A DNA stretch of 64,000 nt from a virus, in the IMG/VR virus record IMGVR_UViG_3300006923_000013, positions 1 to 64,000 of that record. The stretch is one strand, 5' to 3'. Positions within the stretch are counted from its first letter, which is position 1. The number at the start of each line of letters is the position of its first letter. The notes below the pieces were generated by a model. The model was not told where the DNA came from and did no database searches. It saw nothing but the letters and a program-made list of their open reading frames with translations. Both the position numbers and the translations under genes were made by a program. Of this stretch, positions 2,108-36,951 are shown in pieces.

Positions 2108-2521
2108 ATGGAATCAGAGATAACAGCTTCACAACTTGCAGCTTTAAGTAAGAAACTTTACAATGTAAAACAATTAAAAGAATCTCATCAAAAACTTACA
2201 CAAATTGCAGAAAATGTAATACATAATGAATATCCATTTTCCTTAGAATTAAAGGTTAAAGTAACTATACCCTCTATAGATGAGGAATCGAGTAAACAAA
2301 AAACAGCAGAGGATCTTTTAAATATGTTAACAGATAAAGAAGGGGAAGAAGACTTTATGTCCCGTCTGAATAATATTAAAAAAGATAAACCTGAGGTTAT
2401 AAAGGAAATAGCTGTAAATCTGCAAAACATATCTGATAAAACATTTTTTGCAGTTTTAGAAAGATTAGTAAAAGATTTAAACGTTGAAATAAAAAACACA
2501 TCTAAAACAATTAAACTATGA
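2108..2521 (+). CDS. Hypothetical protein (137 aa)
   Basis: ORF track; ATGA overlap with the next gene. Confidence 0.7.
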   Translation: MESEITASQLAALSKKLYNVKQLKESHQKLTQIAENVIHNEYPFSLELKVKVTIPSIDEESSKQKTAEDLLNMLTDKEGEEDFMSRLNNIKKDKPEVIKEIAVNLQNISDKTFFAVLERLVKDLNVEIKNTSKTIKL

Positions 2522-2940
2522 AAACAATATTATTATTTACACTCGCACAAATGTGGCCTTGGGGTTGGTTAACTTTTTTATGTGTATTAGGAACTGCAGT
2601 ATGTGTAATCTTACTTGCTAAAAATGAAAATAAGAAAGCTGAACAACACATGAATAGTGCCGTAGATAAAATCAATAAACAACATGGAATATGTGAAGTT
2701 GTAGAGGATATAAGAGAGATTATATCTACAGAAAAAGCAGCCGCTTGGTATTTTACACATTTACATAATAGTCTTTCATATAGAGCACGCTATGCTCTAA
2801 GTCAGATAGCTGTAACCAATTTAGAAGAATTTATGGATCTAACCTCTGCAGATTTAGAAGGTATCTATAGATGTGGGCCAGTTACACGAAGAGAAATACT
2901 TGATATGGTAGCATGTGTATCTACAGAAGATAAACTTTAA
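2518..2940 (+). CDS. Membrane-anchored protein with a C-terminal RNA polymerase alpha-CTD-like (HhH) domain
   Basis: N-terminal hydrophobic helix WGWLTFLCVLGTAVCVILLA. C-terminal LSYRARYALSQIAVTNLEEFMDLTSADLEGIYRCGPVTRREILDMV aligns by eye with alpha-CTD [46 protein letters not shown]. Confidence 0.7.
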   Translation: MKTILLFTLAQMWPWGWLTFLCVLGTAVCVILLAKNENKKAEQHMNSAVDKINKQHGICEVVEDIREIISTEKAAAWYFTHLHNSLSYRARYALSQIAVTNLEEFMDLTSADLEGIYRCGPVTRREILDMVACVSTEDKL

Positions 2941-2962: not shown

Positions 2963-3000
2963 AAGAAGTAGTTAGAGACTTTCTCTTTCTACTTCTTTTT
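2963..3000 (+). terminator. Probable intrinsic terminator
   Basis: Stem AAGAAGTAG...CTACTTCTT with an inner AGAG/CTCT pairing, followed by a T run; intergenic. Confidence 0.6.
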
Positions 3001-3023: not shown

Positions 3024-3554
3024 ATGGAACAAGAAAATAAAAAATTAACATATGAATCTTTTCAATTAAGATTATTCAAAAAAATATTTGAAAATATAGA
3101 AGAAAATAAATTTGTATCTTCTTTAGCTGTATTAACAGAAAAAGAAACTACAAAACTTATTCCTCTTCCTGGTAGTTTATTTGAAGATAAAGAAGATATG
3201 GATCTTACACTGCGTAAAATATCAAAACTTGGAAATGCAAAAATGTGCTGTTTTGTTAGTATGTGCGGCATATCAAAAGTAGATAAAGATGAAAATCCTG
3301 AAGCATTTGAAAAACTTAAAAATCTAAATGTAGAAAAGTTAACCTCAGAAGATATAAAACTGTTACAGGATTCAGCAACTATAGAAGAAGGATTGATTTT
3401 TAACTTTGAAAGTATAGGAGAACCAAGTAAAGTATATGCATTTGTAAGGAATAAGGAAAAAAGTACATTTGAACTTAAAGAAACCTTTTCATCTGATGAT
3501 AAGGAATTCGAGCAAGAAAGAACAGGTAGATTTATGAATATCTTAGAACAATGA
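3024..3554 (+). CDS. Hypothetical protein (176 aa), translationally coupled to the DNA polymerase gene
   Basis: ORF track; ATGA overlap with polA. Confidence 0.75.
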   Translation: MEQENKKLTYESFQLRLFKKIFENIEENKFVSSLAVLTEKETTKLIPLPGSLFEDKEDMDLTLRKISKLGNAKMCCFVSMCGISKVDKDENPEAFEKLKNLNVEKLTSEDIKLLQDSATIEEGLIFNFESIGEPSKVYAFVRNKEKSTFELKETFSSDDKEFEQERTGRFMNILEQ

Positions 3555-22700: not shown

Positions 22701-23776
22701 ATATTACGAAATATAACAGCTCCACGTTTTTCAAGTGTAGTTTTGGCCTCATCTAGCCTCATTTGTATATATTCCTCCTTTGTTTTATCCTTTATGCCCA
22801 TCTGTTCGAGCATAACGTCATCTCCTTTATACTTCTTATTAAGCTGTGCGAACTCTTTACCATAAGAGGTTTCTGCCCACGCTTTCATCATATCTCCACC
22901 TGTAGAAAACTTATTTACTACATAGTCTTTAGCATAGCGTTCATACTTAGCAGCAATTTCCTTATGAACATCACTTGCAGTTTGTAGATGCATTCTTACT
23001 TTATCGGGTACTATTAATTTACCCTCTTGAATTTGTGCAAGAGTTGAGTCGATGTCACTAAATGCTGTGATATAATAATAAATATCCTGAGCTGCGGCTG
23101 CAGTAAGTTTTTTAGTTCCTTCATCTTCTGCTACACCCATGTTAAGAATTAGCATATCCATTTCTTCAAGAATAGCTGCAGTTTGTTCCATTGCATTTGC
23201 TGCATAGTTCAATAGCCTTTCATCTTGTACTGCCTCTCCTATTGAATCTAATTCCTTTTCTAAATCCTTTTTTTGAGCTTTTAGCTGCCCACTAAGCAGT
23301 TCCTTTGATTTTTGGCGAGAGAGTGTCTTTATTCTCTTTTCCAAAGCACTTGCTGCTTTACGTAGTATTGCAACTTTTATAGAAGATGTAGCTTTAAATT
23401 GACTGGTATTCCAAGGTTTAGTAGCAAGTATTTTACCACTGGCAAAAGACCAAACATCTGCCATATACGGCTCTCCATATATGATCTGTCCGTTCTCATC
23501 GTCTCCAAGGTTATACAATCTAGGAGATTCTTGAGGTGTATCTAATTTATTTACAAGCCTGTATTCATTAGCGGGTAAGATTTTCCAATTACCATACGTA
23601 TTCGTAAACTCTTGACTGCGTGCTAATTCCCAGAGGCTGTCTTTAATAAGTTCCCCCTGGGTTCCATCAGGCTTATCGTATCGTTGATCCCCAAACTGTT
23701 CCTCTAATTTTTCGTAGAGCTTGCTGGGAATTTCTTTACCTGCTTTGTCTACTTTAAAAACTTTACATGTGCTCAT
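19787..23776 (-). CDS. Large virion cargo/ejection protein (1329 aa)
   Basis: Last gene of the crAss-like ejection cluster after the RNAP; helical; C-terminal hydrophobic IGLALFVLPAAGASMAALA; single Cys at residue 4. Confidence 0.8.
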   Translation of the reverse strand: MSTCKVFKVDKAGKEIPSKLYEKLEEQFGDQRYDKPDGTQGELIKDSLWELARSQEFTNTYGNWKILPANEYRLVNKLDTPQESPRLYNLGDDENGQIIYGEPYMADVWSFASGKILATKPWNTSQFKATSSIKVAILRKAASALEKRIKTLSRQKSKELLSGQLKAQKKDLEKELDSIGEAVQDERLLNYAANAMEQTAAILEEMDMLILNMGVAEDEGTKKLTAAAAQDIYYYITAFSDIDSTLAQIQEGKLIVPDKVRMHLQTASDVHKEIAAKYERYAKDYVVNKFSTGGDMMKAWAETSYGKEFAQLNKKYKGDDVMLEQMGIKDKTKEEYIQMRLDEAKTTLEKRGAVIFRNMLEATNQDISFVQRWFLNAQDVNDDVLRALQMEISKVEDEIRLKWIDEVRALHGTFKELQEHQMKKDKNMTREEFYSFMLEKDEIGKPTGYFVSKYHSNWSRDRKKKQDEIYSQEGVSEAAKTRQWIKWKKENIKYNYTLPLRYIIPKGAKKEEKDKIIREATAKRDAKVEALKKEHEAALAASVPKRDAANNITRSGDRGPLSLFEDKIAMIHRASHTQFEIPKKPEDHAKYLNPAYKKLAAYSKLEGGDNIYWKYYIRYMNQNTINDEGLPSNFRTMYKMPSIRKSLPERLEDVHKWMGFFPKLIGKNSLYSEIFQKWKEERTVYVKGEVSERGEESEEMDNLRSKRRKNIQDYASISTDEEGRERQYVPIHYRGQIEIEDLTMDLHGSLVKNTWVTLSYQKMTQLLPYAEMLVFFLQKRLNFTQKAGFKTVGRGSIGRNIDVSAKNSYNAAKDLIEHRMFGVTKLDPGYEIGGLSVTKLLGLVQSYMSTTMLSFNVHSSIANANLANILFTIEGAAGEHFGKKDVAAAYEAYARDMPRMIADLTEPLDQHSKVNVVGLIYDPTNNFDHRQFDYAHNSKTAHLLHGFSLHFLNASVEHHVQSLTMIAYLKSTKILDENDMYLDAKNEPTEDRNKGISLWDSYRIKEGKVVYNHSIRYVEKMIGETTKKMPYYSRDDRAAFHRRGTVAIQRINQQLHGAYSERNAMPFQRLVLGSIMIVFKKYLVPGFRARLGGAAQTVRDYTPKVGKYSKGTLTDGEYIEHSSELPTATPTRMYDPMLGTYRSLGTYSTAYKFIGKVISDLELMKWQVVSANWAELSRNEKGNVIKAVSEIGLALFVLPAAGASMAALAKGQDEDDDFVNWYLGSFMAYRLHSELLQYISPMEAGRILKNPAITITFIERIIDFLSQGKTDTFRALSGEGMEIYKSGSRKGDRKISKKIYDLVPFYKHYTRNRYMKDIVSFYAETGRAR

Positions 23777-26700
23777 TTACAGTTATCTTTAGTATGCGGA
23801 TCGTCATTAAGGTCGTCCTTACTTATATATTTTTCAGGTCTAATTTGGGCCCTCATTCCTCTTTCTGTTCTAACGAGTTTTAACACAGGGCTCTTATTAA
23901 ATACTGTATTGTTTATATGTCCTATATAATTAGCACTTTTTGCATGGTCGTGTTTAAATCCATAAAAGTATTTACCTTTTTTTTGTAGCTTCTTATCTTT
24001 TCCTTTTCCTAATGTACCCTTGTTTAAATATTTGTTACCAATTGCAAAGATCTGAGGAACAGTGAAGTGCAAAAATACAAAATCGCTTTCTTGTGCAGGT
24101 GAAAACTCTCTGTTTTCATTATCATGAGGTATAAAGTTTCTATGGTCATAGTAATCTTTATCCCGCGATAGTGCATCTGAAAACTTTGCTTCAAATATAG
24201 ATACCCAAGAAGCATGTCCTTGTTCTGTTACCACTTCATGTTCTGTATTTAAAAAGAAATCAATTAATAACATCTGCGACTGTTCCTCTTTAGTAAATTT
24301 ATCTAAGCGTTTATTAAAGTTACCTTTTAGGCTCACAAACTTTTCTACAAGATGAGGATGAGTAGTAATAATTGCATTTACAACTATTTTTTCATCCTTT
24401 TCAGGTCTAAATACATATATAGGTATAAAATTAGGAATTTCCTTTTTAACATCGGTCTCTAACCACTGTACAACTTCTTGAATGGTATCAAAATGTCTCT
24501 TACTTTCAGGAATAACGAAATCCAGATCATGTAAGGTTTCAGCTTTATCCCTATATACATTTCCCTGACTTCTTAGAGCAAGGGATCCTACGAGTACGGC
24601 ATTTAATTTACTAATTGCCGTTTCCATCACTTCAAATGCTTTTGGAAATTTAGTGGCTCCTTCTTCAAAAGTTTTAAGTGTAAAGTTTTTATCCTTAGCC
24701 CTTCCATATGTTTCCATGAATTTTTTATCCCCAGAAAGAACTTGCTGTGCAATCTCATCTGCCATAATTTCTACTGGGATACTTGCTATGGATTTTGCTA
24801 TTTTAAGTATAGCTTCATACGCCTCATAAGCTAATTTAAGAAATTTACCTTTTGGAACTCGTTTTTCATTAGCGTAAATAATCGCCTCACCTATTATCTG
24901 CCCAATAGCTTCTTTTTTTATTTTCTCCATATTAGGAGAACCATCTATATTTTGATATAGCCTGTTTTTTGCATAAGCACGCTTAATGGCTCCAAATTTG
25001 CCCCAAGACGTTATATTCTGCATAAGAGGTTTAATCAGATCACTCTTAACGCCTACAAGGTCTACAAGCATATGACTGAACTCTTCAGGCATTACCATCT
25101 TAGTTCTATCTTCTTTAGCTATATCTATAACTTTACGAAGTGTGTGTGCTACACCTAAAACTCCTTCTCCATACCGCTCTTCCATATCCTGCATAGAACG
25201 TTCTGTAACAATTACTCCATATTCTTCTAAAAAGTCTGCTAAATAATTATCTAATTTTTTATCTGCTTTCTCTCCTAAAGTCTGCATTTTAGCAACTATA
25301 TCCTTATGTCCTTCTAATAACGAACTGAATCTATATGCCATAAGTACATTAAAAGGTTTGCCTTTGTATATAAGAGCATTACGTTGCAGCCAACGCTCAA
25401 TTATATCAATTTCATCTTGACTGAATCCATTTTCAGCTAAAAATTCCTTATCGCTGGGTTTTAATTCTTTACCATCAAATACCGATTGTAAGTCTGCAGC
25501 ATTCTCCATAAGAGTTGCAGCTCGTTCTACTTCATTAAGAAATGAGTTTTCTTCTAAATGAAAAAGTGTATTCACATCTGTAGTCTCATTTGGAGATGTA
25601 GATAACTCCACTTCTACTAATATGCCCGCTTCTTTAAGTTTTTTAGTAGCAAAGGTTGTACCTACAATAACATTTTTTTGTAGTGCTTTATCTAAAAGAA
25701 TAATATTATTAGTATTTATATTAGATCCTTTTCCCTCTCTTAAGAAAGGCTCAAATAAGGTTTTACCTCTATCGTTTTTTCCTAACTTGTTTACTACAAC
25801 ATATACAGGGAGCTGCTTTGAATTCCATCCTGCATGTCTGTATAATCTTTCATTCACTGTTACATACTTGGTAACACGAGTAACCTCTTCTCTTCCATCT
25901 ATCAATTCTGTTTTAACAAGAGACGTATCTCCTGTAGCAAATCCGTAGACCTCAAGTCCTAACTCACTAGTAACTTTTTCTGCAAATTTATCGGATATTT
26001 CAGGTACTAAATCTGTATTATGTGAATTATTTCTAAAGAAGATATCTAATTCTGCTCTTGAAAATAACCCTGGGTCAGTAGTATCTGAAACTACAGCACT
26101 ACCTCCTTTGCCGTCTGATACCTCAATTGTGTTTGCTTCTTCATTAAATCGGTCAAATAATTCATCCTCTAATGAAAGGGGCATTAGTTCATGAAAACTA
26201 AAGAGTTTATTTGTATACCCACTTACAATAAAGGAATATAGAGCTAAATCTTTAGCAAATGCTTGTACTTTTTTATCTTCATGTAAGTAGAGTTGTTCCC
26301 AAGCTTCTGTAAGAAGGTCTTTACTTACTCCGTCTTTTTCTTGTGTATTTGGAACAGTTATACTTCCTATTTCATCCTTAATATTAGAGATATTACCTTT
26401 AGATGCAAGTAAATATTTAATAAGTCTGTTTTCTTTTATAGGAGACTTACTAGAAGTCTGCCAGAATGCAAGCTGATTCACAATATTGTTATCACTTATT
26501 ACAAGTTCCTGGAATTTCTCTTGTGTAAGACTTTTTGCCTTCTTAGCAAGATACATACTGTATAAATCTCTATAGGCCCTTCTTAGCTTTTCTGGATTTT
26601 TACTGAAATACTCATTATTGGACATTTCTTCTATCTGCCATAATGCTGATCCAAATCCAGCACTTCCAATATTAAAAGAGTCTTTAAATAACGAGAGCAT

Positions 26701-29700
26701 TAAAGATGTAGAGTTATCTCTATATTTAGCAAGCATTGTGTTTTCAAATCTAGCTGCTATACCCCGTAATCCTGTATCTTGTAATGCATCACTAAGTTTA
26801 CGTTCAGAGACCAATGAGTTTACCATTCCTCCACCTGCACCCTCCACATCTTGTTTAGATGCTCCAATTGCAGAACTAAGTACTGATGCCCGTTGGCGTA
26901 AGTGAAAAAATGTTTCCACTACAGTAAGTTGATGTATAATATGCTCAATATCAGTAGCTTCTTTATTCTTGATCCCTTCTTCTAATGTAGATATATTTAA
27001 AAGGTTATCAAGTTTTAATGTGTTACTTCCAAATTTAGAATTTATATTCTTTATTTCATCTTTAAATGCTTTCTCTGCGTTTATATACGACATACCCTCT
27101 CCCTCCATTGTCTCTATATACTTCTTCTTATAATCACGAAGTACTGCTTCCTTATCTGTTAAAGTCTTTTTAGTTTTTTCATCCCATATCCGTTTAGTAT
27201 TACCCGCACGTGTGTATTGAGCATATTCTACCCATTCTTTAAGTATAGGCTGAGACATGAACATATCAGTCCATTCTGGGTTCGCCCCGAGGCGATCTAA
27301 CAGAAATACAGTATTTGCTGTGAACTCATTATTGTTTAGATAAAAGATATAAGGATCTTTTGCTATATCCACATATGCATTAAGTCTACCTGAAATGATA
27401 TTAGTGATCGTACCTTTTGCAGTATTGTAAATTTGAGAAAGATCAGAGAATCCTGATTTGGTTTTATTACCAATTCCTAAATTTTCTGAAAAATACAATG
27501 GAGATTCTTCGCTCACGTTATCTGAAAGAGAGAACTGAGAAATCGCATGGTCAACCAATTGACGTGCAGTAAGTGCTACTCCTGTTTTACCTCCTACAAA
27601 TTGCTGCTTTACATCTACTTGAAACGAAGCTGAAAACCACTCAAGATCTCCTTTGACAGACATGGCGTCTGTCACAAACTTTATAAAATCTTCAAGTTTA
27701 TCTGCAGCAATAAGCGCTTCACCCCTTGCACGCATTTTGTGATCAAAAACTGTAGTATAATTCTCAAAGAATCTAACTTTTGCAGCTCTGAATTTTACTC
27801 CAATGGAATCCAAAGGAGTAATTAGGTCTATATATGTTTTAGGATCACTTATAACAGCATCGTATATCTCAAGTTTTCTATTTTGAAGTGCTTTCTTACG
27901 AATTGCTCTTTTTTTCGAATAGTATATCTCTGTAGCCTTTTCTTTTGAAGTCGTTCCTTTTTTATTCTTTTCTTGTATCGCTTCTATTTGCTTTTCTGTT
28001 GGAGGTAATATAGGACCTTTCATAGATTCCTTATATTCTATATAATAAGGTTTACCTGAATTTTTATCCACTCCAAAATTAGGAAGCATAATGAACATCT
28101 TATCGATGTCGAAATCCGAACCTGTCTTAGCTGTGATATCATCGTATGCTACTACCGCATCTCCCATAGATTTCGGTAAAAACCCTACAACTTCAAATGC
28201 ATCGATAGAGCTCATACCTTGATTTGGTATTCTATATGCTATACCTCTAAGTAATCGCTTATCAGAGATATATTTCTGAATCTCTGCAGACGACATCTTT
28301 TCGTAATTAGGAATAAGATCTCTAAACCAAGAAGGAAGCATAATTTGGGCCCGAGAGAACTTAACAAATTCGCCGCCCTTATTAACTTCAGATATACCAG
28401 GTTTCAAATCGTTAGGATTAGTAACCATTTCTATCTCTGCCTTTTCTGCATCAGTAAGACTTGACCAGCGTTTAGTACGCTTAAATCCGAAGTTACTCAA
28501 CTGAATATACGAGCCACCTGGCATTTTAAGCTTTACAGTACGTGCTGTAATGATAGATCCAATTAATTGGTCGATCTTATCTGCATATGGATGAGAGTGA
28601 AGAGGGCGTAAGAATCCTCTCTTATCTGCTCTAAGTTCCAATGAATCTAACAGCTTTCTGGGAGTTGATTCTTTCTTACTGAACTCTTTATAGATTAACT
28701 CATGTAATTTAGTGTAATCTGTAATCTGTGGATCACCTTCATCATTAGTAGTTATACCAAATTCTTCATAAAGTTTATCCTTGCCCATATTCGACAGTTC
28801 TCTGTCTATATCATGTGCCTGTTTAATTAGATTTTGACCCGTAACTTTTTTTCCATCTAAAGTATACTGTGCATTTATCCTAATATTAGCAAGTAGATTA
28901 CGTTTAACCTGAGACCCCTCAAGAGACTCAGAAGCTGTGTGAGGACGCAAGTCCTGCTGAAGCTTCCAATACTCATTACGAAGAGTCATTACATTAAGCT
29001 TCAGTTTTCCTTCACCTGTAAAATGCTTAGGAGATTGGGCGCCGACTTTAATACCTGATTCGAAGATCACCTCATCGATAGGATTAGTTTTATCTGTCAT
29101 TGTAGCATACAGAGTTTCTAACTTATCTGTACCCTTTACAACTTGTGGAAATAATACTGCTTGGGAATACTTTATATACGTAGGAACCATAAGTCCTTTA
29201 TAAGGACGTAATTCATAATGCATACCTTTTAAAGGCATTGCAGCTATAAATTTCATATCCTTTGCTGTTCCTGCTCCTGCAAGTAATCTTTTATAGATCT
29301 CATCTATTTTACTATTGTCCCAACGGCCTAACCTTTTCATAATGAATGCCCAACGCTCAAGTGATATATAGCCCTGCCCATCAGCTTGGTTTACCTTACT
29401 ATAAGGTTTAAGAATGCGTTTAATATCTGCTTCTGAGAATCCCCATCCATGCTTTTTATTTGCGGCTTTATAGCTAGCTAAGTACTCTCCAAAATATGCA
29501 CTTGGTTCTTCTATATCCCGTAAAACTGCCATTTTGAAGAACTCTTCTCCGACAGCTAAATTTAGATCCTGACCTGGTGCAATAAGAGATGGCATTCTCT
29601 TAGAGAGCTCATCCATATTAAAATAGAAAGCAGGATTACCTGCATATACTTGCATTGCCTCTAAATTAGAAATAATGCTATTAAGACCAAATGCAGCTAT

Positions 29701-32700
29701 TGCGCGTCTGGTTCTTACATCCGCAGAGTGCACTATTTCTCCTGCTTCGTTTACTGTTTGCCCATCGAGGGTACTGAATGCACTGAATGTTTTTGTAGCT
29801 ATAGCATGATTCTTAAGTCCGCCATTCGGATTAGTTTGTATTGTAGAATACCTTAATGCTGTTCCTACTTCTGCTCTGATTCTATCATTTATGATATCTG
29901 TCATCTTAGACACGAATGCTGGCTTTTCAAGAAGATCCTTAATTACAGGATGAACTATGGTCTTTCCAACCTTAAACCCGATCTTTTGTAAAAACTCCTC
30001 ATCATTAAAAGAAGGAAATGTTACGAATTTAGTGCCGTTTGCATTTTCACGTAAAAGCTTTCCTGTCTTCTTATCCTCTCCCTTATAGTGATAATTTTCT
30101 ATAAGTTGCGAATCGGTAAGTGCGTGTTTTCCGAACAGTTGTAAATCAGCTTGATATATAGCTGCCATTTCGGTAACAGCATAGGTACTAAATATCTTAA
30201 GTATATGAGGAGGTATAATATAAGTATCTGTTTTTTTATTATACTCTATCATATTAATATCCGAAGGAGTTAAATATTCTACTCCTTTATATAGCATCCA
30301 AACTCCTTTATCTGCCATAGTTGCAGGGCTGTAAGTATGCTTTAAAGTCATATTTACTCGAAGTGTGTATTCGTCTGCGGGGTTCAAACCTTTATAGTCT
30401 GTTCCGTGATCGTTTCCTCCCTGTTTCTTGTAGGTATTGAAAGTTTTATATACTAACTTTTTACCTTTTTTCAACTGCTTCAGTAATTGCGATTGACCAT
30501 GATATGGACTTTTTAATAACTCATCTGCATAATAAGAAGACCTGTTCATTTGTAATGTACGCTTCTTGAAGAAATTATTCAGTGAGTATATCCAGTAAGT
30601 TTTACCTTCTGGACCCAGGATAGTAGTTTGACCAAAATCTTCTGTTACAACTGCCTCTCCTGCAGCAAGTTTCATTACAAAACTCTCTTTAAGCATATGA
30701 TTTTCTACGAAATCTACAGCTACATTTCCTTTATTTTTTCCCTTTCCTGCCAAAGTACCCATAGAATATGTAGAACCTGTTCCCATAAGTTTTGACATGC
30801 CACCTATAAATATCCTACGAGCAGTTTTAAATTCTGGAGAAATCAGGTTAAATGCCTGTTCTAATCCCTCTTCGCTCATTTCTATTCCTAAGTGCTCTAA
30901 AAATATACGTGTAGTATGAGAAGTAGACGCTGTAAGACCTTCATTACGTAAATCGAGCATAACTTGTAACCACATAGCACTGTTACGTGCGGCTACGTCT
31001 TTATTAGCTGTAATTACAAGATTCCCCTCTTTATCCTCTTTTTTGCTATATAAGGGCAACTCCTTATGATTCTCAAACCATCTATCTCGAATACGATATG
31101 CTTTACCTTGCTGTTGAGGGTCTATAAACTTATATAGTAAGCTCTTCTGTACCTGTCCTTTTACTTCGTAAACTAAATTCTGATACAGAACAGTTAAGAA
31201 ATTGCTATTTGATTTACTCATAGCATTAAAGAACTGTGTCCTTTCATTTATAGGTAACGCTTTTACACGAGTATATAAACTCTCAAATGTTCTATCTGAA
31301 ACCGATAAAGTCTCTAATTTGACCATCATCTGATCGTAAGAAGATATAGTTTTACCTTGTTCATTGGTATATGTAACAGTATCAGCTAATAAAGCCTCAA
31401 CTGTGTTCCACATATGCCCAGGATTAGCCATTACAGGCAATCCCGTGTCTACATTCGTAACTAGTTCACCGTTCTTATCAAATAGCGGTAAAAAGCTAAA
31501 GAATACCCTGGTAGTAGTAGTAGCATTTTGCTTACCACTGGTCTCAAACGGAGATTTAGATGCAGCCAAGACATCAGCGTTATCCTTTCTCGTTTCTTCG
31601 TTTTCTCTGATTCCTAATTGTTGTAATCTAAGTTCTGCATGTTCAACAAGGACATCTACTTCTCTTAGTAGTAGTTTTCTCGCATTCAAAAAGGGCTTTT
31701 CATTTTCTATAGTTTCTGCCCTTTTGACCTTAAATTCTAAATATGCTTTAAAGAAAGCATGTAATTTCTTACTCTCTTTCGCATTAGCTTCAAAACTCTC
31801 TATATCCTTGATATTATGAACTCCTCCTATTCCTCCTGCGTTATCTATATAGTGGTGTAAAGTAATATTAACTGTCTGCTCTACTGTACGGGGGTCTAAG
31901 GGAAGCCTCTCCATTGCTAAAGCATGTAAACCTTTTCCACTGCGCCACGCTTCTACTTTAGCCGATATAGGCTTAGTATTAGCGTAATACCCTGCAGACA
32001 TACGGTAGAACAGTAAGTCTGTGTGCATACGGGTTTTAGGATTCATCATATATCCGACTAAAGCCTTGATATACTTAAACCATCGTATTACCTTCTCTCC
32101 TACTCCTGCAGTTTCACCTGTAGTTTCCCAATATCTATACTCTTCAGCACGTATTTCAGAATAATAGATAGCCTCTGCTACTTCTTCGGTAATATCCTTA
32201 TGTTTAGATTGAATCTCTTTGATCATGGCTTTGGTAGGAACACCAAATTGCTGCCTGGTCTGAATATCTAATCCTCTACGTTGCTCTGGTGCAAGCCATA
32301 ATTCTTCAACAGCATGATAGGCTTCGTGGTACTCTGCGCCATGTACAGCCTGTTCAGATAAAGTAATCATACCCTTTCTAAATACACCGTATGCATATGC
32401 ACCTTTTCGTCCTAAGCTTATCAGGCTCTTTTGAATATTAACAGGAACAGTATCTCCAAGTACTCTCTTTAAGTATGCCCGAGCTTTAATCTCGTTGAAT
32501 TTCTCTTTAGGAGCTTTTTCCGAAGTGTCGTCCCCTACCTCTACTTCCATAGAAAGGTTTTCCATGTCATCGCCAAACTGGAAGTTATGACCCTCGTTTG
32601 TGGTTTCTTTTTTTGCTGCAGTTTTAGTATCTTCTTTCTTTTTTTCTTCCTTTTCTTCCCTACTCTTATTATGCACTTCAGTATTAAATATAAACTTACT

Positions 32701-35700
32701 TGCTGAATGTACAAGGTGTTTTGGTCTAAGTTGATCGTCTAATTTAGTGTCTGTACGCATAACATGCATATCTACATCCTCAGAATTGTTTTCTGTTAGA
32801 AAATGCTCATTATACTTATCATACTCATCTTCAAGGTATGTAACCCCTTGAAATACAATAGAACCCCGTTTCTTAAGGGACATTGTTTCCGAAGTGAATA
32901 TATCAAATATCGATTTATTTAATGCTGTTGAATGTACCTGACGTTTTTTGTTCGCTAAAGCCCACGCTATGAACTGCTCTTTGGTACTTTCCGTAAGTTG
33001 TACAAAGTCTCCAGCCTCACCGTCATAAAAATATGCTTGATTTTCTTCTATCACGAGAGCAGTATTTATGAACGGAGAAAACCCTTTTCCTGCTCCAAGA
33101 GTATAGTGCTGTTTTGCATACTCTCTAGACTCGAAAGAATATGTAAGCATTTCAAGGTATTGCAGAATTGACAACCCTGTATCTATTTCATTTCGCCAGT
33201 ACCTCGAAGACTTACTTCTTGCCTTTTTATAAAATTCAAGTATATCCAATAGATCAAAAACCTCATTCTCATTAAGCCCTCTTTGATTAAGCTTAACACT
33301 TTGCGGCTCTTCTGTAGCAGGATCAACTACCATCGCATAGACTACACCATTATTAGCCTTTGTACCTGTATCAAATCCTACAGTCGTACCTCCTCCAGTA
33401 ATTTCAAAGTCATTCTTAACTCCTAATACTACTGGACCATCTGGGAATAAAGATTTAATAGAGAAGTGCTCCCCTATATTTTCCTTTACTCCATCCCTAC
33501 TACGAAGCTCGTTCCAAAATGCCCTTACTTCTTGATATTTGGATATAGTACCAAATGCAGGTTCTCCTGCAACATACTGCTTGTATATTTTACGTCTAAG
33601 GAGCGCAGTAGCCTCTTTATTACTCTGATCTCCTGTGAGCCCGCTCTGCAAATTTACACTGTATTCAACTCCTGTTTTCGGATCCTTTATCCATACGTTT
33701 ATATGAAGCTTTGCAAGATCTCCGACTGGAGCATCTTTAGGAGGTGTAATTTTATTTCTATACTTATCTTTTATTATAGAGCTTGCGTACCAATACTTTG
33801 AATCGAAATCTATTTCGTATCTAACCTCTTTATTTTCAAAAAATATAGAGGGAAGAGAATTTATATACTTAAGAAAGAGATCCGTTATGTGTATTCCATT
33901 CCTTATAGATCCTATTAAGGATATAGGCTTTTTAGCATCTGTAAAACTTGGTTCGGGCTCAACTGCTTCTTCTTCAGTTGTATTTTCTTCTGTTTTAGGA
34001 CCTGAATTTCCATCTTGGTTATCGTGTTCTACCTTTTCTGCATTTTCAAATGAAGTGTTTACAGTTGGAACTACTTCAGGTTCTACAACTACTTCAGGCC
34101 CCACGTCTGCTTTTACTTCTCCTGTTTCTTCTGGCGCATGTTCCTCAGCAGTTTCTTCTGCGTTTTCGAATAGAGCATCATCTACTACAGGTATTACAGG
34201 TACTACAGGTTCGTCAAATTTAGAAAATAGATCATCTACATCATCGGACCCTTCCTCCTCCTCCTCCTTAGCCTTTTTAGCCTTTTCCGCTTCTTGCTCT
34301 TTCTTCTCATTTTTAGCATTCTGTTGCTTTCCATGAGAAGTAGCATTTTCAGCTTTAACTTCCTCAATTGGTACTATAAGTGTAATATTATCTCTTTCTA
34401 CTGGTACCTCTATTTCACCATTCCATACTCCATATGTAGCATTCCCTTCTTGATCTGTGGTTATTCTAAGATTTCCATGTTGTGCTTGCCCATTGGAATC
34501 TTTATATTCTACCAAAGCATTTTCTTCTAAACCTTCTTGATTTTGCTTAGCAATAGTAGGTTCTTTTTCCTTTACCTCTGGTCTCTCTAAAGTTTTACCA
34601 AAATCCTGTATAAATGGATTTGCCATGAGCGTTTCTCCATTTGACGCACTTTGTATCAACTCTCTGGTTACATCATTTTCCCGTTTAGATGCTTTGGCTG
34701 CAAATGCGGTATTATTAAGATCCTGTAGATCTTTATTTAGAGGAATACTTTTGGTCGTTGTATGTCCATGCTGTTCCAGCATAGTTTTGTACTGCTTTTC
34801 AAGTCCTGGTACAGCTTCTTTGTGCTCTGTAGCTTTTGTTCCCTTTAATATTTTTGTATAGTAATCCTCCTGTATCTTATTAATAGCAGCAAGACGCATA
34901 TCTGTAGTCCCAGGAAGAGCCTTAATACGCTTAAGCTTTGCTCTGGCTACATTCAATTCTGCCTTTAGAGCTATAAGTTCAGACATTCCCTGTTCCTTCT
35001 CCGTTGTAGGAGCTGGAAGACCTGCAATAACTTTTTGAATTTCTGACTCTGCATTGGAAATATCCTCTGCTAATCTTTCCCCTGTAGAGTAGTTACTGAT
35101 AAGGGCCCTAAATGCTGTGCTTTTATCTTCTACGCTTAACGATTTGAACTTCTCTTGATTTACATTACTATGGATTGCGGATGCAACGAGAACCATTTCT
35201 CTGGCTTTAGGCATATCCATCTTCTCTGCAATATCAGGAAAACTCTTCTCAATCTTATTGAGTAACTTATTAAGCTTTTTAGCTCCACCTTTCTCTTGAA
35301 GTTTAGTGAAAAGCCATTCAGACATTGCCTTATTATGCTCTGCATCCATATACCTATCGTATACCTGCTCTACAAAATCTTCTGCATCTGAACCATACAT
35401 TTGATTATCTACTACCTTCTGTGCAGTTCTTATGCCTAATTCTCCTACTGTTCTGGTACCTCCCATGACACCACCAAGCATTACTCCTGCATCAACAGAG
35501 GCTTTAAACTCTTTGGATTCCGTGCGTCCTCCTGCAACTCTATAGTCTAAAATCCTATTAATAGAGTTATTGACCATCCCTCCAGTAGTTTCTGCAGCCA
35601 GTCCCATACTGTTTACAATAGATTCGAGTCTTTCTAAATCATCATAGTCTCCTCTTAGATAACCATTCTTAATTAAGAACTGGTCTCCTTCTTCTCTTCC

Positions 35701-36951
35701 TTCCCAATAAGCTCCTACACCTACACCACCAGCTCCTGCACCTGCATAAGCAGCTCTTCTTCCCCATTTACCTGTAGGTAAGAAGTTTTTAAACTTACTC
35801 CAAGGTAAGAACCCTATACCTGCTTCAATCACATCTGTGGCAAATAGATTTTGATTCAGGTCATACACAGCCCCTACAGTAGACATCGTTTGTTTTTCAA
35901 GAGCAGCTAACTCTTCTTCTGGCATTTCCTTGCCATTATTAAGCAGTCTGTATTTTCTTTTCTCTCCCTCAATCTTAGATTCAAATGCTTCGTGCATTTC
36001 TGCGTAAGATTCTCTATTTCTAGAGTAAAGCTGTGCAGCAAGTGCTCCGCCGAATCCTACAGCGAATCCAATAGTACCTCCAACTGTTACTCCACCTGCA
36101 GCTCCTGGTCCTGACCATATAGTCGCACCAAGTCCTACTGTAGCCCCTACAAGTGCTGTAGCCTTTCCTGCAATATAAGGAGCAGCCATACTCGCCCCCA
36201 TTGCTTGTATTTCAGACATAGTTCCACCTAAATGGTGTGCAAGCTCCATCCAACTGTCAGGCCAAGCTCCTGGATTTGCTACATCCTGATCAATCCTATG
36301 TTGACCATATTTTCCTAAATAGTCAGATGCAGCCTTATGTTCTATTTCGTTTTCTTTTATATCTTGCTCATAATCAGCAATATCATCATCGATCTCTTGT
36401 AAAGCATCGAGCTGATCTTCAGTTGGTACTCCTCCTGAATTTTTAATATCTTCTTCGATTATGTTCTTTCTATTAGTAGCCTCAAGGATCTCTCCTTTAG
36501 TAGCACTTATCTGAATAGCATCTATATTCTGCTGAAGAGCATTCCATACATTACGTATTCCACTCTTTTCTAAGATCTCTTCTTTAGTACTTACAACCAG
36601 TGCATCCTCAGGGTTAAAACGAGGATCACTGTTTAAAAGCTTTCTATCTTCTCCTCCTTTATTTATATACTTAAGTAACTCTGATTTATAGCGTTGCTGA
36701 AGATACCCCGCTTTATCGGCTGTATAAGCATCCTGCTCTTCGAAAGAACGTGGGTCTTCTGGTCCATAAGGATTTATGGGATTCTCAAAAGGAAGCTCAG
36801 TATTTGGAGGGATTGGAGTTGTTGCTGTGCCTTGCTTATTTTGTAAAGGCTTATTCTGAAGTTCAGAGCGTAAGCTTTCGCTTTGCTCTACTTCCTTATT
36901 TTCAAACTGCTCTACATACTCTTCAATAGGCCTGTGTTGTTTAGCGCTCAT
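23773..36951 (-). CDS. Giant virion-packaged RNA polymerase polyprotein (4392 aa): N-terminal membrane segments, zincin, two-barrel RNAP, second zincin-like domain, C-terminal nucleotidyltransferase
   Basis: Catalytic KTGSDFDIDK (~28100-28130) with YRIPNQ and DGQGY motifs as in crAss-like vRNAPs; HEAYH (~32314-32328); EEFSH (~25072-25086); GSLAL...HDLDF (~24515-24590). Confidence 0.92.
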   Translation of the reverse strand: MSAKQHRPIEEYVEQFENKEVEQSESLRSELQNKPLQNKQGTATTPIPPNTELPFENPINPYGPEDPRSFEEQDAYTADKAGYLQQRYKSELLKYINKGGEDRKLLNSDPRFNPEDALVVSTKEEILEKSGIRNVWNALQQNIDAIQISATKGEILEATNRKNIIEEDIKNSGGVPTEDQLDALQEIDDDIADYEQDIKENEIEHKAASDYLGKYGQHRIDQDVANPGAWPDSWMELAHHLGGTMSEIQAMGASMAAPYIAGKATALVGATVGLGATIWSGPGAAGGVTVGGTIGFAVGFGGALAAQLYSRNRESYAEMHEAFESKIEGEKRKYRLLNNGKEMPEEELAALEKQTMSTVGAVYDLNQNLFATDVIEAGIGFLPWSKFKNFLPTGKWGRRAAYAGAGAGGVGVGAYWEGREEGDQFLIKNGYLRGDYDDLERLESIVNSMGLAAETTGGMVNNSINRILDYRVAGGRTESKEFKASVDAGVMLGGVMGGTRTVGELGIRTAQKVVDNQMYGSDAEDFVEQVYDRYMDAEHNKAMSEWLFTKLQEKGGAKKLNKLLNKIEKSFPDIAEKMDMPKAREMVLVASAIHSNVNQEKFKSLSVEDKSTAFRALISNYSTGERLAEDISNAESEIQKVIAGLPAPTTEKEQGMSELIALKAELNVARAKLKRIKALPGTTDMRLAAINKIQEDYYTKILKGTKATEHKEAVPGLEKQYKTMLEQHGHTTTKSIPLNKDLQDLNNTAFAAKASKRENDVTRELIQSASNGETLMANPFIQDFGKTLERPEVKEKEPTIAKQNQEGLEENALVEYKDSNGQAQHGNLRITTDQEGNATYGVWNGEIEVPVERDNITLIVPIEEVKAENATSHGKQQNAKNEKKEQEAEKAKKAKEEEEEGSDDVDDLFSKFDEPVVPVIPVVDDALFENAEETAEEHAPEETGEVKADVGPEVVVEPEVVPTVNTSFENAEKVEHDNQDGNSGPKTEENTTEEEAVEPEPSFTDAKKPISLIGSIRNGIHITDLFLKYINSLPSIFFENKEVRYEIDFDSKYWYASSIIKDKYRNKITPPKDAPVGDLAKLHINVWIKDPKTGVEYSVNLQSGLTGDQSNKEATALLRRKIYKQYVAGEPAFGTISKYQEVRAFWNELRSRDGVKENIGEHFSIKSLFPDGPVVLGVKNDFEITGGGTTVGFDTGTKANNGVVYAMVVDPATEEPQSVKLNQRGLNENEVFDLLDILEFYKKARSKSSRYWRNEIDTGLSILQYLEMLTYSFESREYAKQHYTLGAGKGFSPFINTALVIEENQAYFYDGEAGDFVQLTESTKEQFIAWALANKKRQVHSTALNKSIFDIFTSETMSLKKRGSIVFQGVTYLEDEYDKYNEHFLTENNSEDVDMHVMRTDTKLDDQLRPKHLVHSASKFIFNTEVHNKSREEKEEKKKEDTKTAAKKETTNEGHNFQFGDDMENLSMEVEVGDDTSEKAPKEKFNEIKARAYLKRVLGDTVPVNIQKSLISLGRKGAYAYGVFRKGMITLSEQAVHGAEYHEAYHAVEELWLAPEQRRGLDIQTRQQFGVPTKAMIKEIQSKHKDITEEVAEAIYYSEIRAEEYRYWETTGETAGVGEKVIRWFKYIKALVGYMMNPKTRMHTDLLFYRMSAGYYANTKPISAKVEAWRSGKGLHALAMERLPLDPRTVEQTVNITLHHYIDNAGGIGGVHNIKDIESFEANAKESKKLHAFFKAYLEFKVKRAETIENEKPFLNARKLLLREVDVLVEHAELRLQQLGIRENEETRKDNADVLAASKSPFETSGKQNATTTTRVFFSFLPLFDKNGELVTNVDTGLPVMANPGHMWNTVEALLADTVTYTNEQGKTISSYDQMMVKLETLSVSDRTFESLYTRVKALPINERTQFFNAMSKSNSNFLTVLYQNLVYEVKGQVQKSLLYKFIDPQQQGKAYRIRDRWFENHKELPLYSKKEDKEGNLVITANKDVAARNSAMWLQVMLDLRNEGLTASTSHTTRIFLEHLGIEMSEEGLEQAFNLISPEFKTARRIFIGGMSKLMGTGSTYSMGTLAGKGKNKGNVAVDFVENHMLKESFVMKLAAGEAVVTEDFGQTTILGPEGKTYWIYSLNNFFKKRTLQMNRSSYYADELLKSPYHGQSQLLKQLKKGKKLVYKTFNTYKKQGGNDHGTDYKGLNPADEYTLRVNMTLKHTYSPATMADKGVWMLYKGVEYLTPSDINMIEYNKKTDTYIIPPHILKIFSTYAVTEMAAIYQADLQLFGKHALTDSQLIENYHYKGEDKKTGKLLRENANGTKFVTFPSFNDEEFLQKIGFKVGKTIVHPVIKDLLEKPAFVSKMTDIINDRIRAEVGTALRYSTIQTNPNGGLKNHAIATKTFSAFSTLDGQTVNEAGEIVHSADVRTRRAIAAFGLNSIISNLEAMQVYAGNPAFYFNMDELSKRMPSLIAPGQDLNLAVGEEFFKMAVLRDIEEPSAYFGEYLASYKAANKKHGWGFSEADIKRILKPYSKVNQADGQGYISLERWAFIMKRLGRWDNSKIDEIYKRLLAGAGTAKDMKFIAAMPLKGMHYELRPYKGLMVPTYIKYSQAVLFPQVVKGTDKLETLYATMTDKTNPIDEVIFESGIKVGAQSPKHFTGEGKLKLNVMTLRNEYWKLQQDLRPHTASESLEGSQVKRNLLANIRINAQYTLDGKKVTGQNLIKQAHDIDRELSNMGKDKLYEEFGITTNDEGDPQITDYTKLHELIYKEFSKKESTPRKLLDSLELRADKRGFLRPLHSHPYADKIDQLIGSIITARTVKLKMPGGSYIQLSNFGFKRTKRWSSLTDAEKAEIEMVTNPNDLKPGISEVNKGGEFVKFSRAQIMLPSWFRDLIPNYEKMSSAEIQKYISDKRLLRGIAYRIPNQGMSSIDAFEVVGFLPKSMGDAVVAYDDITAKTGSDFDIDKMFIMLPNFGVDKNSGKPYYIEYKESMKGPILPPTEKQIEAIQEKNKKGTTSKEKATEIYYSKKRAIRKKALQNRKLEIYDAVISDPKTYIDLITPLDSIGVKFRAAKVRFFENYTTVFDHKMRARGEALIAADKLEDFIKFVTDAMSVKGDLEWFSASFQVDVKQQFVGGKTGVALTARQLVDHAISQFSLSDNVSEESPLYFSENLGIGNKTKSGFSDLSQIYNTAKGTITNIISGRLNAYVDIAKDPYIFYLNNNEFTANTVFLLDRLGANPEWTDMFMSQPILKEWVEYAQYTRAGNTKRIWDEKTKKTLTDKEAVLRDYKKKYIETMEGEGMSYINAEKAFKDEIKNINSKFGSNTLKLDNLLNISTLEEGIKNKEATDIEHIIHQLTVVETFFHLRQRASVLSSAIGASKQDVEGAGGGMVNSLVSERKLSDALQDTGLRGIAARFENTMLAKYRDNSTSLMLSLFKDSFNIGSAGFGSALWQIEEMSNNEYFSKNPEKLRRAYRDLYSMYLAKKAKSLTQEKFQELVISDNNIVNQLAFWQTSSKSPIKENRLIKYLLASKGNISNIKDEIGSITVPNTQEKDGVSKDLLTEAWEQLYLHEDKKVQAFAKDLALYSFIVSGYTNKLFSFHELMPLSLEDELFDRFNEEANTIEVSDGKGGSAVVSDTTDPGLFSRAELDIFFRNNSHNTDLVPEISDKFAEKVTSELGLEVYGFATGDTSLVKTELIDGREEVTRVTKYVTVNERLYRHAGWNSKQLPVYVVVNKLGKNDRGKTLFEPFLREGKGSNINTNNIILLDKALQKNVIVGTTFATKKLKEAGILVEVELSTSPNETTDVNTLFHLEENSFLNEVERAATLMENAADLQSVFDGKELKPSDKEFLAENGFSQDEIDIIERWLQRNALIYKGKPFNVLMAYRFSSLLEGHKDIVAKMQTLGEKADKKLDNYLADFLEEYGVIVTERSMQDMEERYGEGVLGVAHTLRKVIDIAKEDRTKMVMPEEFSHMLVDLVGVKSDLIKPLMQNITSWGKFGAIKRAYAKNRLYQNIDGSPNMEKIKKEAIGQIIGEAIIYANEKRVPKGKFLKLAYEAYEAILKIAKSIASIPVEIMADEIAQQVLSGDKKFMETYGRAKDKNFTLKTFEEGATKFPKAFEVMETAISKLNAVLVGSLALRSQGNVYRDKAETLHDLDFVIPESKRHFDTIQEVVQWLETDVKKEIPNFIPIYVFRPEKDEKIVVNAIITTHPHLVEKFVSLKGNFNKRLDKFTKEEQSQMLLIDFFLNTEHEVVTEQGHASWVSIFEAKFSDALSRDKDYYDHRNFIPHDNENREFSPAQESDFVFLHFTVPQIFAIGNKYLNKGTLGKGKDKKLQKKGKYFYGFKHDHAKSANYIGHINNTVFNKSPVLKLVRTERGMRAQIRPEKYISKDDLNDDPHTKDNCK

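Follow-up and report, generated by a model that had tools for sequence, protein, structure and literature searches.

A putative membrane-anchored protein with a domain of the RNA polymerase alpha-CTD family, encoded beside the replication genes of a marine phage of predicted crAss-like affinity

The C-terminal domain of the RNA polymerase (RNAP) alpha subunit (alpha-CTD) is the main module by which RNAP docks onto upstream DNA and activators. Contact with DNA is made through the 265 determinant, in which R265 inserts into the minor groove and K297, K298 and N268 are needed for UP-element binding in E. coli; in RpoA, proteins dock on the face carrying this determinant as well. Some phages modify the domain, as T4 does by ADP-ribosylating R265. 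In the literature searched, neither a paper on phage-encoded alpha-CTD domain proteins nor a described function for them was found. Attachment of phage DNA to the membrane is known from phi29 p16.7, a protein laid out as an N-terminal anchor, a coiled coil and a C-terminal DNA-binding domain. The p16.7 protein is made early and organizes membrane-associated phage DNA replication (PMC4974454, PMC11476376). The present analysis concerns P0001, the product of the open reading frame (ORF) at 2518-2940 in a window of 64,000 nucleotides, i.e. the whole stretch of DNA analysed, which covers positions 1 to 64,000 of IMG/VR record IMGVR_UViG_3300006923_000013. P0001 joins an N-terminal transmembrane (TM) helix and a charged stalk to a C-terminal helix-hairpin-helix (HhH) domain of the alpha-CTD family, and the tentative proposal is that it tethers DNA to the membrane on the cytoplasmic side, by analogy with phi29 p16.7. 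A preliminary description of the window had read the same ORF as a membrane-tethered mimic of the alpha-CTD, acting as a decoy.

Homology of the C-terminal domain was established through intermediates. One full-length homologue of P0001, designated P0002 (162 amino acids (aa), JGI metagenome), was recovered in an exhaustive phmmer search of 1.84 billion representatives, with 42-43% identity. The same search yielded seven bacterial proteins matching residues ~72-132 of P0001 at E 3.6e-10 to 4.5e-4, and no RpoA at E 0.001. All seven hold two to five domains of the Pfam family RNA_pol_A_CTD (PF03118) above the gathering cut-off of 23.8 bits, and several also contain sigma-70 region 4; P0003 and P0007, two other entries of the phmmer list, are repeat proteins lacking PF03118 and were treated as spurious. 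P0001 itself does not reach the cut-off, its residues 86-130 matching positions 20-64 of the 67-position PF03118 profile with 13.2 bits (E 0.078), and P0002 gave no match at E <=0.01. In a six-frame scan of the genome the same PF03118 match appeared at E 0.004, and the NCBIfam rpoA model matched residues 86-132 weakly. Since all seven phmmer relatives carry PF03118, the sub-threshold match of P0001 is taken to be more than chance; the Pfam search proposed in the preliminary description fell short on its own, and membership was secured by the phmmer intermediates. Further support comes from profile comparisons: a profile of the two phage C-termini matches 23 repeats of the bacterial relatives, with per-repeat E up to ~3e-3, and in hhalign the two-sequence phage profile aligned with six RpoA alpha-CTDs (E. 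coli and five from metagenome-assembled genomes (MAGs), one of which bears the doubtful label Bacteroides) over 50 columns in the same register, at E 1.4e-4 and a probability of 53%.

In a MAFFT alignment of the bacterial repeats, P0001, P0002 and E. coli alpha residues 250-320, P0001 and the E. coli alpha-CTD align without internal gaps at ~22% identity, in agreement with the alpha-CTD spacing earlier noted for 2773-2910 (residues 86-131). L86, R89, C119, G120, T123 and I127 are invariant across nine aligned proteins. The arginine thought to be equivalent to R265 is indeed R89, and the G-x-x-T/S-x-x-EI motif corresponds to G120, T123, E126 and I127. The likeness to a DNA-contacting alpha-CTD holds in part: I303 is conserved, as is E302 in P0001, and within the 265-determinant set R265, G296 and S299 (as Thr) are kept, but K297-K298 is Pro-Val in both phage proteins (P121-V122 in P0001), and the N268 position is Tyr in P0001 (Y92) and Asn in P0002. 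With a net charge of -2 in P0001 and -1 in P0002, the core of the domain has the lowest values in the family alignment, most relatives lying between 0 and +6. The P0001 domain does not conserve the 261-determinant positions.

The fold leads to the same family. AlphaFold2 was run with a nine-row alignment of PF03118 relatives, and the model therefore depends on the sequence result; residues 70-135 were modelled with a predicted local distance difference test score (pLDDT) of 85-97, with helices at 88-97, 102-106, 110-113 and 121-139. A single-sequence AlphaFold model had a pLDDT of 54 and was too poor for use. The first Foldseek match in the PDB was 1lb2_B, the E. coli alpha-CTD in complex with CAP and DNA, with a root-mean-square deviation of 1.2 A over 51 residues, probability 1.0 and E 0.13; alpha-CTDs made up most of the top rows, with Rad51 N-terminal HhH and SAM domains after them. 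VIA-align against 48,161 chains placed 1z3e_B, the B. subtilis alpha-CTD, first at Z 6.7, with SAM domains tied within 1 Z (6.0-6.5). The model held by the ESM Atlas itself, made without the nine-row alignment, also lies closest in structure to PF03118 clusters. By intermediate homology and fold, the C-terminal domain of P0001 belongs to the PF03118 HhH family.

SAM domains are protein-interaction modules, and their tie with the alpha-CTDs bears on a reading in which P0001 is a protein-protein adaptor, in which an HhH/SAM-like domain that no longer binds DNA would bring another protein, of phage or host, to the membrane. Such a partner might be a replication protein, an ejected virion protein or the product of the upstream ORFan, to whose gene that of P0001 is translationally coupled. 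The coupling itself, the loss of the K297/K298 and N268 equivalents and the slightly acidic domain are all consistent with such a role. The invariance of R89 and of the G..T hairpin, as in DNA-binding relatives, speaks against it, and the adaptor is given a low probability.

The branch of the family to which the domain belongs is indicated by the scores of the phage profile, which reach 15-33 bits on repeats of multi-alpha-CTD proteins, at most 13.5 bits on the six RpoA and at most 8.7 bits on the domains of cultured phages. On sequence comparison the P0001 domain is therefore placed as a diverged member of the non-RpoA branch, and not as a recent copy of host rpoA. Its nearest sequence relatives are the multi-alpha-CTD bacterial proteins (P0004, P0006, P0009 and P0010), with which it has a Cys-Gly hairpin in common, written N-C-G-x-K-T in those proteins and R-C-G-P-V-T in the phage. 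The multi-alpha-CTD proteins, unlike P0001, are large, soluble, multi-domain and uncharacterised, keep the hairpin Lys and have no evident membrane anchor. Bacterial RpoA alpha-CTD shows the same HhH fold and aligns free of gaps, but the P0001 domain is joined to a membrane anchor instead of an alpha N-terminal domain: no Pfam match to RNA_pol_L or RNA_pol_A_bac was obtained in P0001, where the TM helix and stalk precede the CTD. As seen in loci L003-L013 from GTDB MAGs, the multi-alpha-CTD family comprises proteins of ~860-1000 aa with two to five tandem alpha-CTDs, sigma-70 region 4 and a conserved long C-terminal region, and it occurs in MAGs of Thermodesulfobacteriota, Desulfobacteraceae, Victivallales, Verrucomicrobiae, Planctomycetota, Omnitrophota and Acidobacteria.

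These relationships bear directly on the decoy reading, in which a membrane-held true alpha-CTD would take factors that dock on host RpoA, such as class I activators, sigma region 4 and Spx- or NusA-like partners, away from host promoters. The fold is that of an alpha-CTD, and the residues kept only between the two phage proteins (Y88, R91, E114-G115-I116 and P121-V122) lie on or near the 265-determinant face, which can dock proteins. However, the closest sequences are non-RpoA paralogues, the 261-determinant positions are not conserved, and stoichiometric titration by a small membrane protein would be inefficient. Sequestration of host activators by P0001 is possible, yet as an account of the protein the decoy seems rather unlikely, and less likely than an attachment of DNA or a partner protein to the membrane. 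Of the preliminary description, the anchor, the linker, the alpha-CTD-family domain and the Bacteroidota-type phage all stand, whereas the label of mimic or decoy is not supported, the domain having ~22% identity to the E. coli alpha-CTD and its nearest kin outside RpoA.

The N-terminal part of P0001 is strongly hydrophobic over residues 3-34, a stretch of ~31 residues. The TM helix earlier placed at 2554-2619 (residues 13-34) was borne out: the best 19-residue window, 16-34, reaches 2.34 on the Kyte-Doolittle (KD) scale and sums to -1.8 kcal/mol on the Hessa scale, P0002 being similar, and the AlphaFold models break the helix at M12-P14. Conservation is concentrated at the very N-terminus: the first 17 residues agree far more closely than the other residues of the anchor, and the remainder of the protein is ~40% identical. 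This exceeds what a plain anchor needs, and the Trp-Pro-Trp-Gly-Trp in front of the TM core hints at a specific role at the membrane interface or in binding a partner. A single Lys precedes the hydrophobic run of P0001 and K35, K39 and K40 follow it, giving three Lys/Arg within 15 residues; in P0002 two Arg and a Lys come directly after the run. The positive-inside rule, applied to these flanking charges, favours an N-out/C-in topology, with stalk and domain predicted to face the cytoplasm; the call was made by hand from hydropathy and charge rules. In the AlphaFold model a continuous helix spans residues 13-85, with pLDDT ~50-60 at 45-69 and >=85 from residue 70 onward. The stalk of P0002 carries 27 extra, charged residues, and the length of the spacer therefore varies. 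Weak matches of P0001 or P0002 to Tim54, MAP17, SepX and nagA were taken as compositional. The suggestion that P0001 might be bait for a defence sensor found no backing in PADLOC, which gave only weak LeoBC matches to the TM and stalk (E 0.017 and 4.8e-4), likewise taken as compositional.

The same segment could instead be a signal peptide or an N-in signal anchor, leaving the HhH domain in the periplasm in a ComEA-like or spanin-like protein. ComEA has an HhH domain together with an anchor or signal, and in a ComEA-like role P0001 would bind incoming DNA and act in superinfection exclusion. The hydrophobic run of P0002 ends in A-L-A, possibly a cleavage motif, and P0002 weakly matches an Rz-like spanin (phrog_1403, E 0.0034) over the TM and charged helix; both observations point in this direction. 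Lys/Arg right after a hydrophobic run disfavours Sec export, and a cleaved Sec signal peptide, named in the preliminary description among the findings that would overturn its reading, is unlikely because the ~31-residue run far exceeds a signal-peptide core and is followed directly by a basic residue in both family members. Other points against export are that P0001 has no spanin match and no HHH_3/ComEA or other HhH Pfam match besides RNA_pol_A_CTD, that its gene lies in the replication rather than the lysis module with no lipoprotein ORF embedded in it or following it, and that the invariant Cys119 is common to cytoplasmic relatives. Export of the domain is considered very improbable.

Proteins with PF03118 above the cut-off were found in three cultured phages, namely gp005 of Bacillus phage vB_BmeM-Goe8 (78 bits), gp26 of Microbacterium phage Mazun (50.5 bits) and gp23 of Ruegeria phage vB_RpoS-V16 (41 bits). 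Mazun gp26 has 141 aa and a C-terminal domain, like P0001, but none of the three, unlike P0001, has a hydrophobic anchor (maximum KD <=1.1). In V16 gp23 (L015:1432-2298, plus strand) an N-terminal alpha-CTD is fused to a part of ~200 residues that RefSeq names a pyrophosphatase. Several viral PF03118 clusters are present in BFVD and the ESM Atlas, some with sigma region 4 fused to the domain; no family of PHROGs v4 matches the alpha-CTD, and P0001 had no PHROG match. Alpha-CTD domains are already present in several phage lineages, and the membrane-anchored form in a crAss-like phage is new. MT835508.1 (L035) and several short INPHARED records filed as phage are bacterial rpoA-rplQ operon fragments, likely reflecting contamination or misclassification.

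The full record has 85.8 kb, an estimated completeness of 92% and 36% G+C. Two genes downstream of P0001, a DNA polymerase finds its best matches in the crAss-like cr111_1, cr108_1 and IAS virus at 27-29% identity, and a minus-strand ORF of 4392 aa (23773-36951 in the window) contains DFDID at residue 2946. DFDxD is the catalytic motif of the crAss-like virion RNAP (10.1101/2020.03.07.982082). Because of the polymerase matches and the DFDID in the 4392-aa protein, the phage is assigned by sequence to the crAss-like group. Taking 4,388 residues for two molecules as the basis (10.1101/2020.03.07.982082), the 4392-aa ORF is about twice the length of gp66 of phi14:2. From 3.5 to 18 kb the plus strand encodes the DNA polymerase, helicases, a primase and a ribonucleotide reductase, and the P0001 gene lies just upstream on the same strand. 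In phi14:2 the injected virion RNAP transcribes all of the rightward replicative module, which is early, and host RNAP is required for the middle and late genes (10.1101/2020.03.07.982082). Since that module is early in phi14:2, the P0001 gene is by analogy expected to be expressed early. The decoy would gain something from this setting, crAss-like phages having to re-direct the host RNAP on which their middle and late genes depend (10.1101/2020.03.07.982082), and it would then act around the switch from virion-RNAP to host-RNAP transcription. In a broader version P0001 would be a membrane-anchored alpha-CTD surrogate that captures host factors or drags A/T-rich DNA, conceivably the host nucleoid, to the membrane and so aids the shut-off of host transcription, before host RNAP is turned to the middle and late phage genes. 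The nuclear disruption caused by T4 offers a comparison for a host nucleoid drawn to the membrane. The surrogate is judged distinctly unlikely; if true, it would give a phage-encoded alpha-CTD paralogue its first functional role.

The ORF was found to be as first described, and its start codon is supported by P0002, which opens with the same residues. Upstream of the DNA polymerase stands a cluster of small ORFans that ends with the P0001 gene (Table 1). The ORF at 2108-2521 begins 3 nt past the stop of an ORF at 1731-2105, so that these two and the P0001 gene form a tight unit; family and fold searches with the upstream ORFs, including 2108-2521, produced no lead. Three of the ten small plus-strand ORFs there (1091-1258, 1572-1721 and 2518-2940) have a strong hydrophobic helix (KD 1.9-2.3) and no family match; they make up a group of small, probably early membrane proteins. 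Past the P0001 stop a hairpin folds at -18.6 kcal/mol (z -3.6), an energy matched by none of 200 shuffles, and probably ends the small-gene transcription unit ahead of the next gene, which begins at 3024. Its A+T-rich stem explains why a consensus terminator scan missed it; a consensus promoter scan gave chance-level results. The P0001 protein occurs in identical copies on seven contigs, the longest of 90.6 kb, and the DNA of the region is present in marine metagenome sequencing runs from several studies, with no RNA run among the runs found. Word-indexed protein searches with P0001 and the alignments added no family members; a related-loci search of viral and metagenome contigs with P0001, P0002 or their alignment, and a degenerate DNA pattern for E-G-I..C-G-P-V-T on viral contigs, returned nothing. 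Against phages, megablast of the first 12 kb of the window gave no match and tblastn of P0001 chance-level matches only, and phmmer of P0001 against the PDB gave one TM-driven match (E 1.8). The P0001 family is tiny, with two known members.

Table 1. Features of the P0001 gene and protein, with the corresponding genes of conjugative elements (coordinates in the window unless a locus is named).
Feature	Coordinates	Strand	Basis or remark
CDS of P0001, 140 aa	2518..2940	+	ORF list; end coordinate takes in the stop codon
N-terminal 17 residues, MK.I.LFTLA.MWPWGW	2518..2568	+	15/17 identical between P0001 and P0002
Core TM helix, residues ~15-34	2560..2619	+	Hydropathy; helical in both AlphaFold models
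Charged helical stalk, residues 35-85	2620..2772	+	Starts K-N-E-N-K-K; AlphaFold
Alpha-CTD-family HhH domain, residues 86-133	2773..2916	+	Profile, phmmer, alignment, fold
Codon AGA for R89 (= R265)	2782..2784	+	Invariant in 9/9 aligned proteins
Hairpin C119-G120-P121-V122-T123 (= L295-G296-K297-K298-S299)	2872..2886	+	Both lysines replaced
P0001 to E. coli alpha residues: L86=L262, R89=R265, Y92=N268, C119=L295, G120=G296			
P0001 to E. coli alpha residues: P121=K297, V122=K298, T123=S299, E126=E302, I127=I303			
Upstream ORF, 137 aa	2108..2521	+	Its TGA overlaps the P0001 ATG (ATGA); translationally coupled
Terminator-like A+T-rich hairpin and T run	2963..2997	+	23 nt past the P0001 stop; RNA folding
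Genes of the TM + coiled-coil + PF03118 protein	L034:3509-4237 and L036:5995-6732	+	Bacteroidales conjugative elements

The combination of a TM helix with an alpha-CTD, which the preliminary description had proposed to seek in other phages, is absent from the three cultured-phage PF03118 proteins and was found instead in Bacteroidales conjugative elements. In MT835483.1 a 242-aa protein consists of an N-terminal TM segment, a coiled coil of ~130 residues and a C-terminal PF03118 domain scoring 25.0 bits, above the cut-off. Acidic residues precede its TM segment and R-C-A-R-R-R-N-P-R-R-K follows, a clear N-out/C-in pattern, and its gene lies directly upstream of that for a type IV secretion coupling protein. 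MT835483.1 is filed as 'Bacteriophage sp.' and looks in this region like a conjugative element. Records of Phocaeicola and Parabacteroides contain homologues that share 54% identity; in Parabacteroides distasonis (WP_217778581.1, NZ_OY725768.1) the gene stands between traK-traM-traN and the coupling protein. PGAP names the protein only 'RNA polymerase subunit alpha C-terminal domain-containing protein'. No copy of it was found in 151 genomes of the order of the MAG labelled Bacteroides, a label that may be wrong, the match statistics of L004 and L007 also being identical.

Among the three functions proposed in the preliminary description, namely sequestering host activators, tethering DNA to the membrane and baiting a defence sensor, tethering fits the anatomy and the precedents best. 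In the DNA tether model, P0001 would be anchored in the inner membrane by its single N-terminal helix early in infection by a marine crAss-like phage, and the charged stalk of variable length would reach into the cytoplasm with one HhH domain at its tip. There it would keep DNA against the cytoplasmic side of the membrane. This DNA could be the phage genome, on entry or during replication, or conceivably the host nucleoid, and contact would be made by the minor-groove arginine R89 together with the hairpin backbone. The model is favoured because R89 and the G..T hairpin are invariant, because the top structural match is a DNA-bound alpha-CTD, because in the relatives the domain is accompanied by a DNA-binding module, sigma region 4, because the gene lies in the early replication strand, and because p16.7 and the conjugative-element protein, encoded next to a DNA-translocating membrane ATPase, are precedents. 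Several observations weigh against it. Both lysines of the hairpin are replaced in the two phage proteins and N268 in P0001, the domain is slightly acidic in both, and the topology is a prediction by hand rules. No pairwise similarity was detected between the conjugative-element protein and P0001. The C-terminal fold of p16.7 is unrelated to the P0001 domain, and p16.7 structures are not among the fold matches listed by Foldseek and VIA. The present value of P0001 is that of a testable lead, not a discovery, its family having two members and its function being putative. If the tether is real, it would bear on how crAss-like phages organize early replication or take over the host, which is poorly understood.

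In comparison with known systems, the protein of the conjugative elements resembles P0001 in its three-part architecture, in the G-P-V-T of the hairpin and in its place on a mobile element from the host phylum of crAss-like phages. It differs in its size, its ~130-residue coiled coil, a Ser at the R265 position, and a gene placed beside the coupling protein rather than the replication module; since no pairwise similarity connects the two, the likeness is taken as architectural analogy and not shared descent. Together, the phage and conjugative-element cases suggest that mobile elements of Bacteroidota encode a class of membrane-tethered HhH proteins, so far unstudied, that probably handle DNA at the membrane. 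With phi29 p16.7, P0001 has in common the N-terminal anchor, a gene in the strand of the replication module and, as judged from phi14:2, a likely early timing. The hosts and the modes of replication differ, that of p16.7 being protein-primed, and the analogy between p16.7 and P0001 is one of function only.

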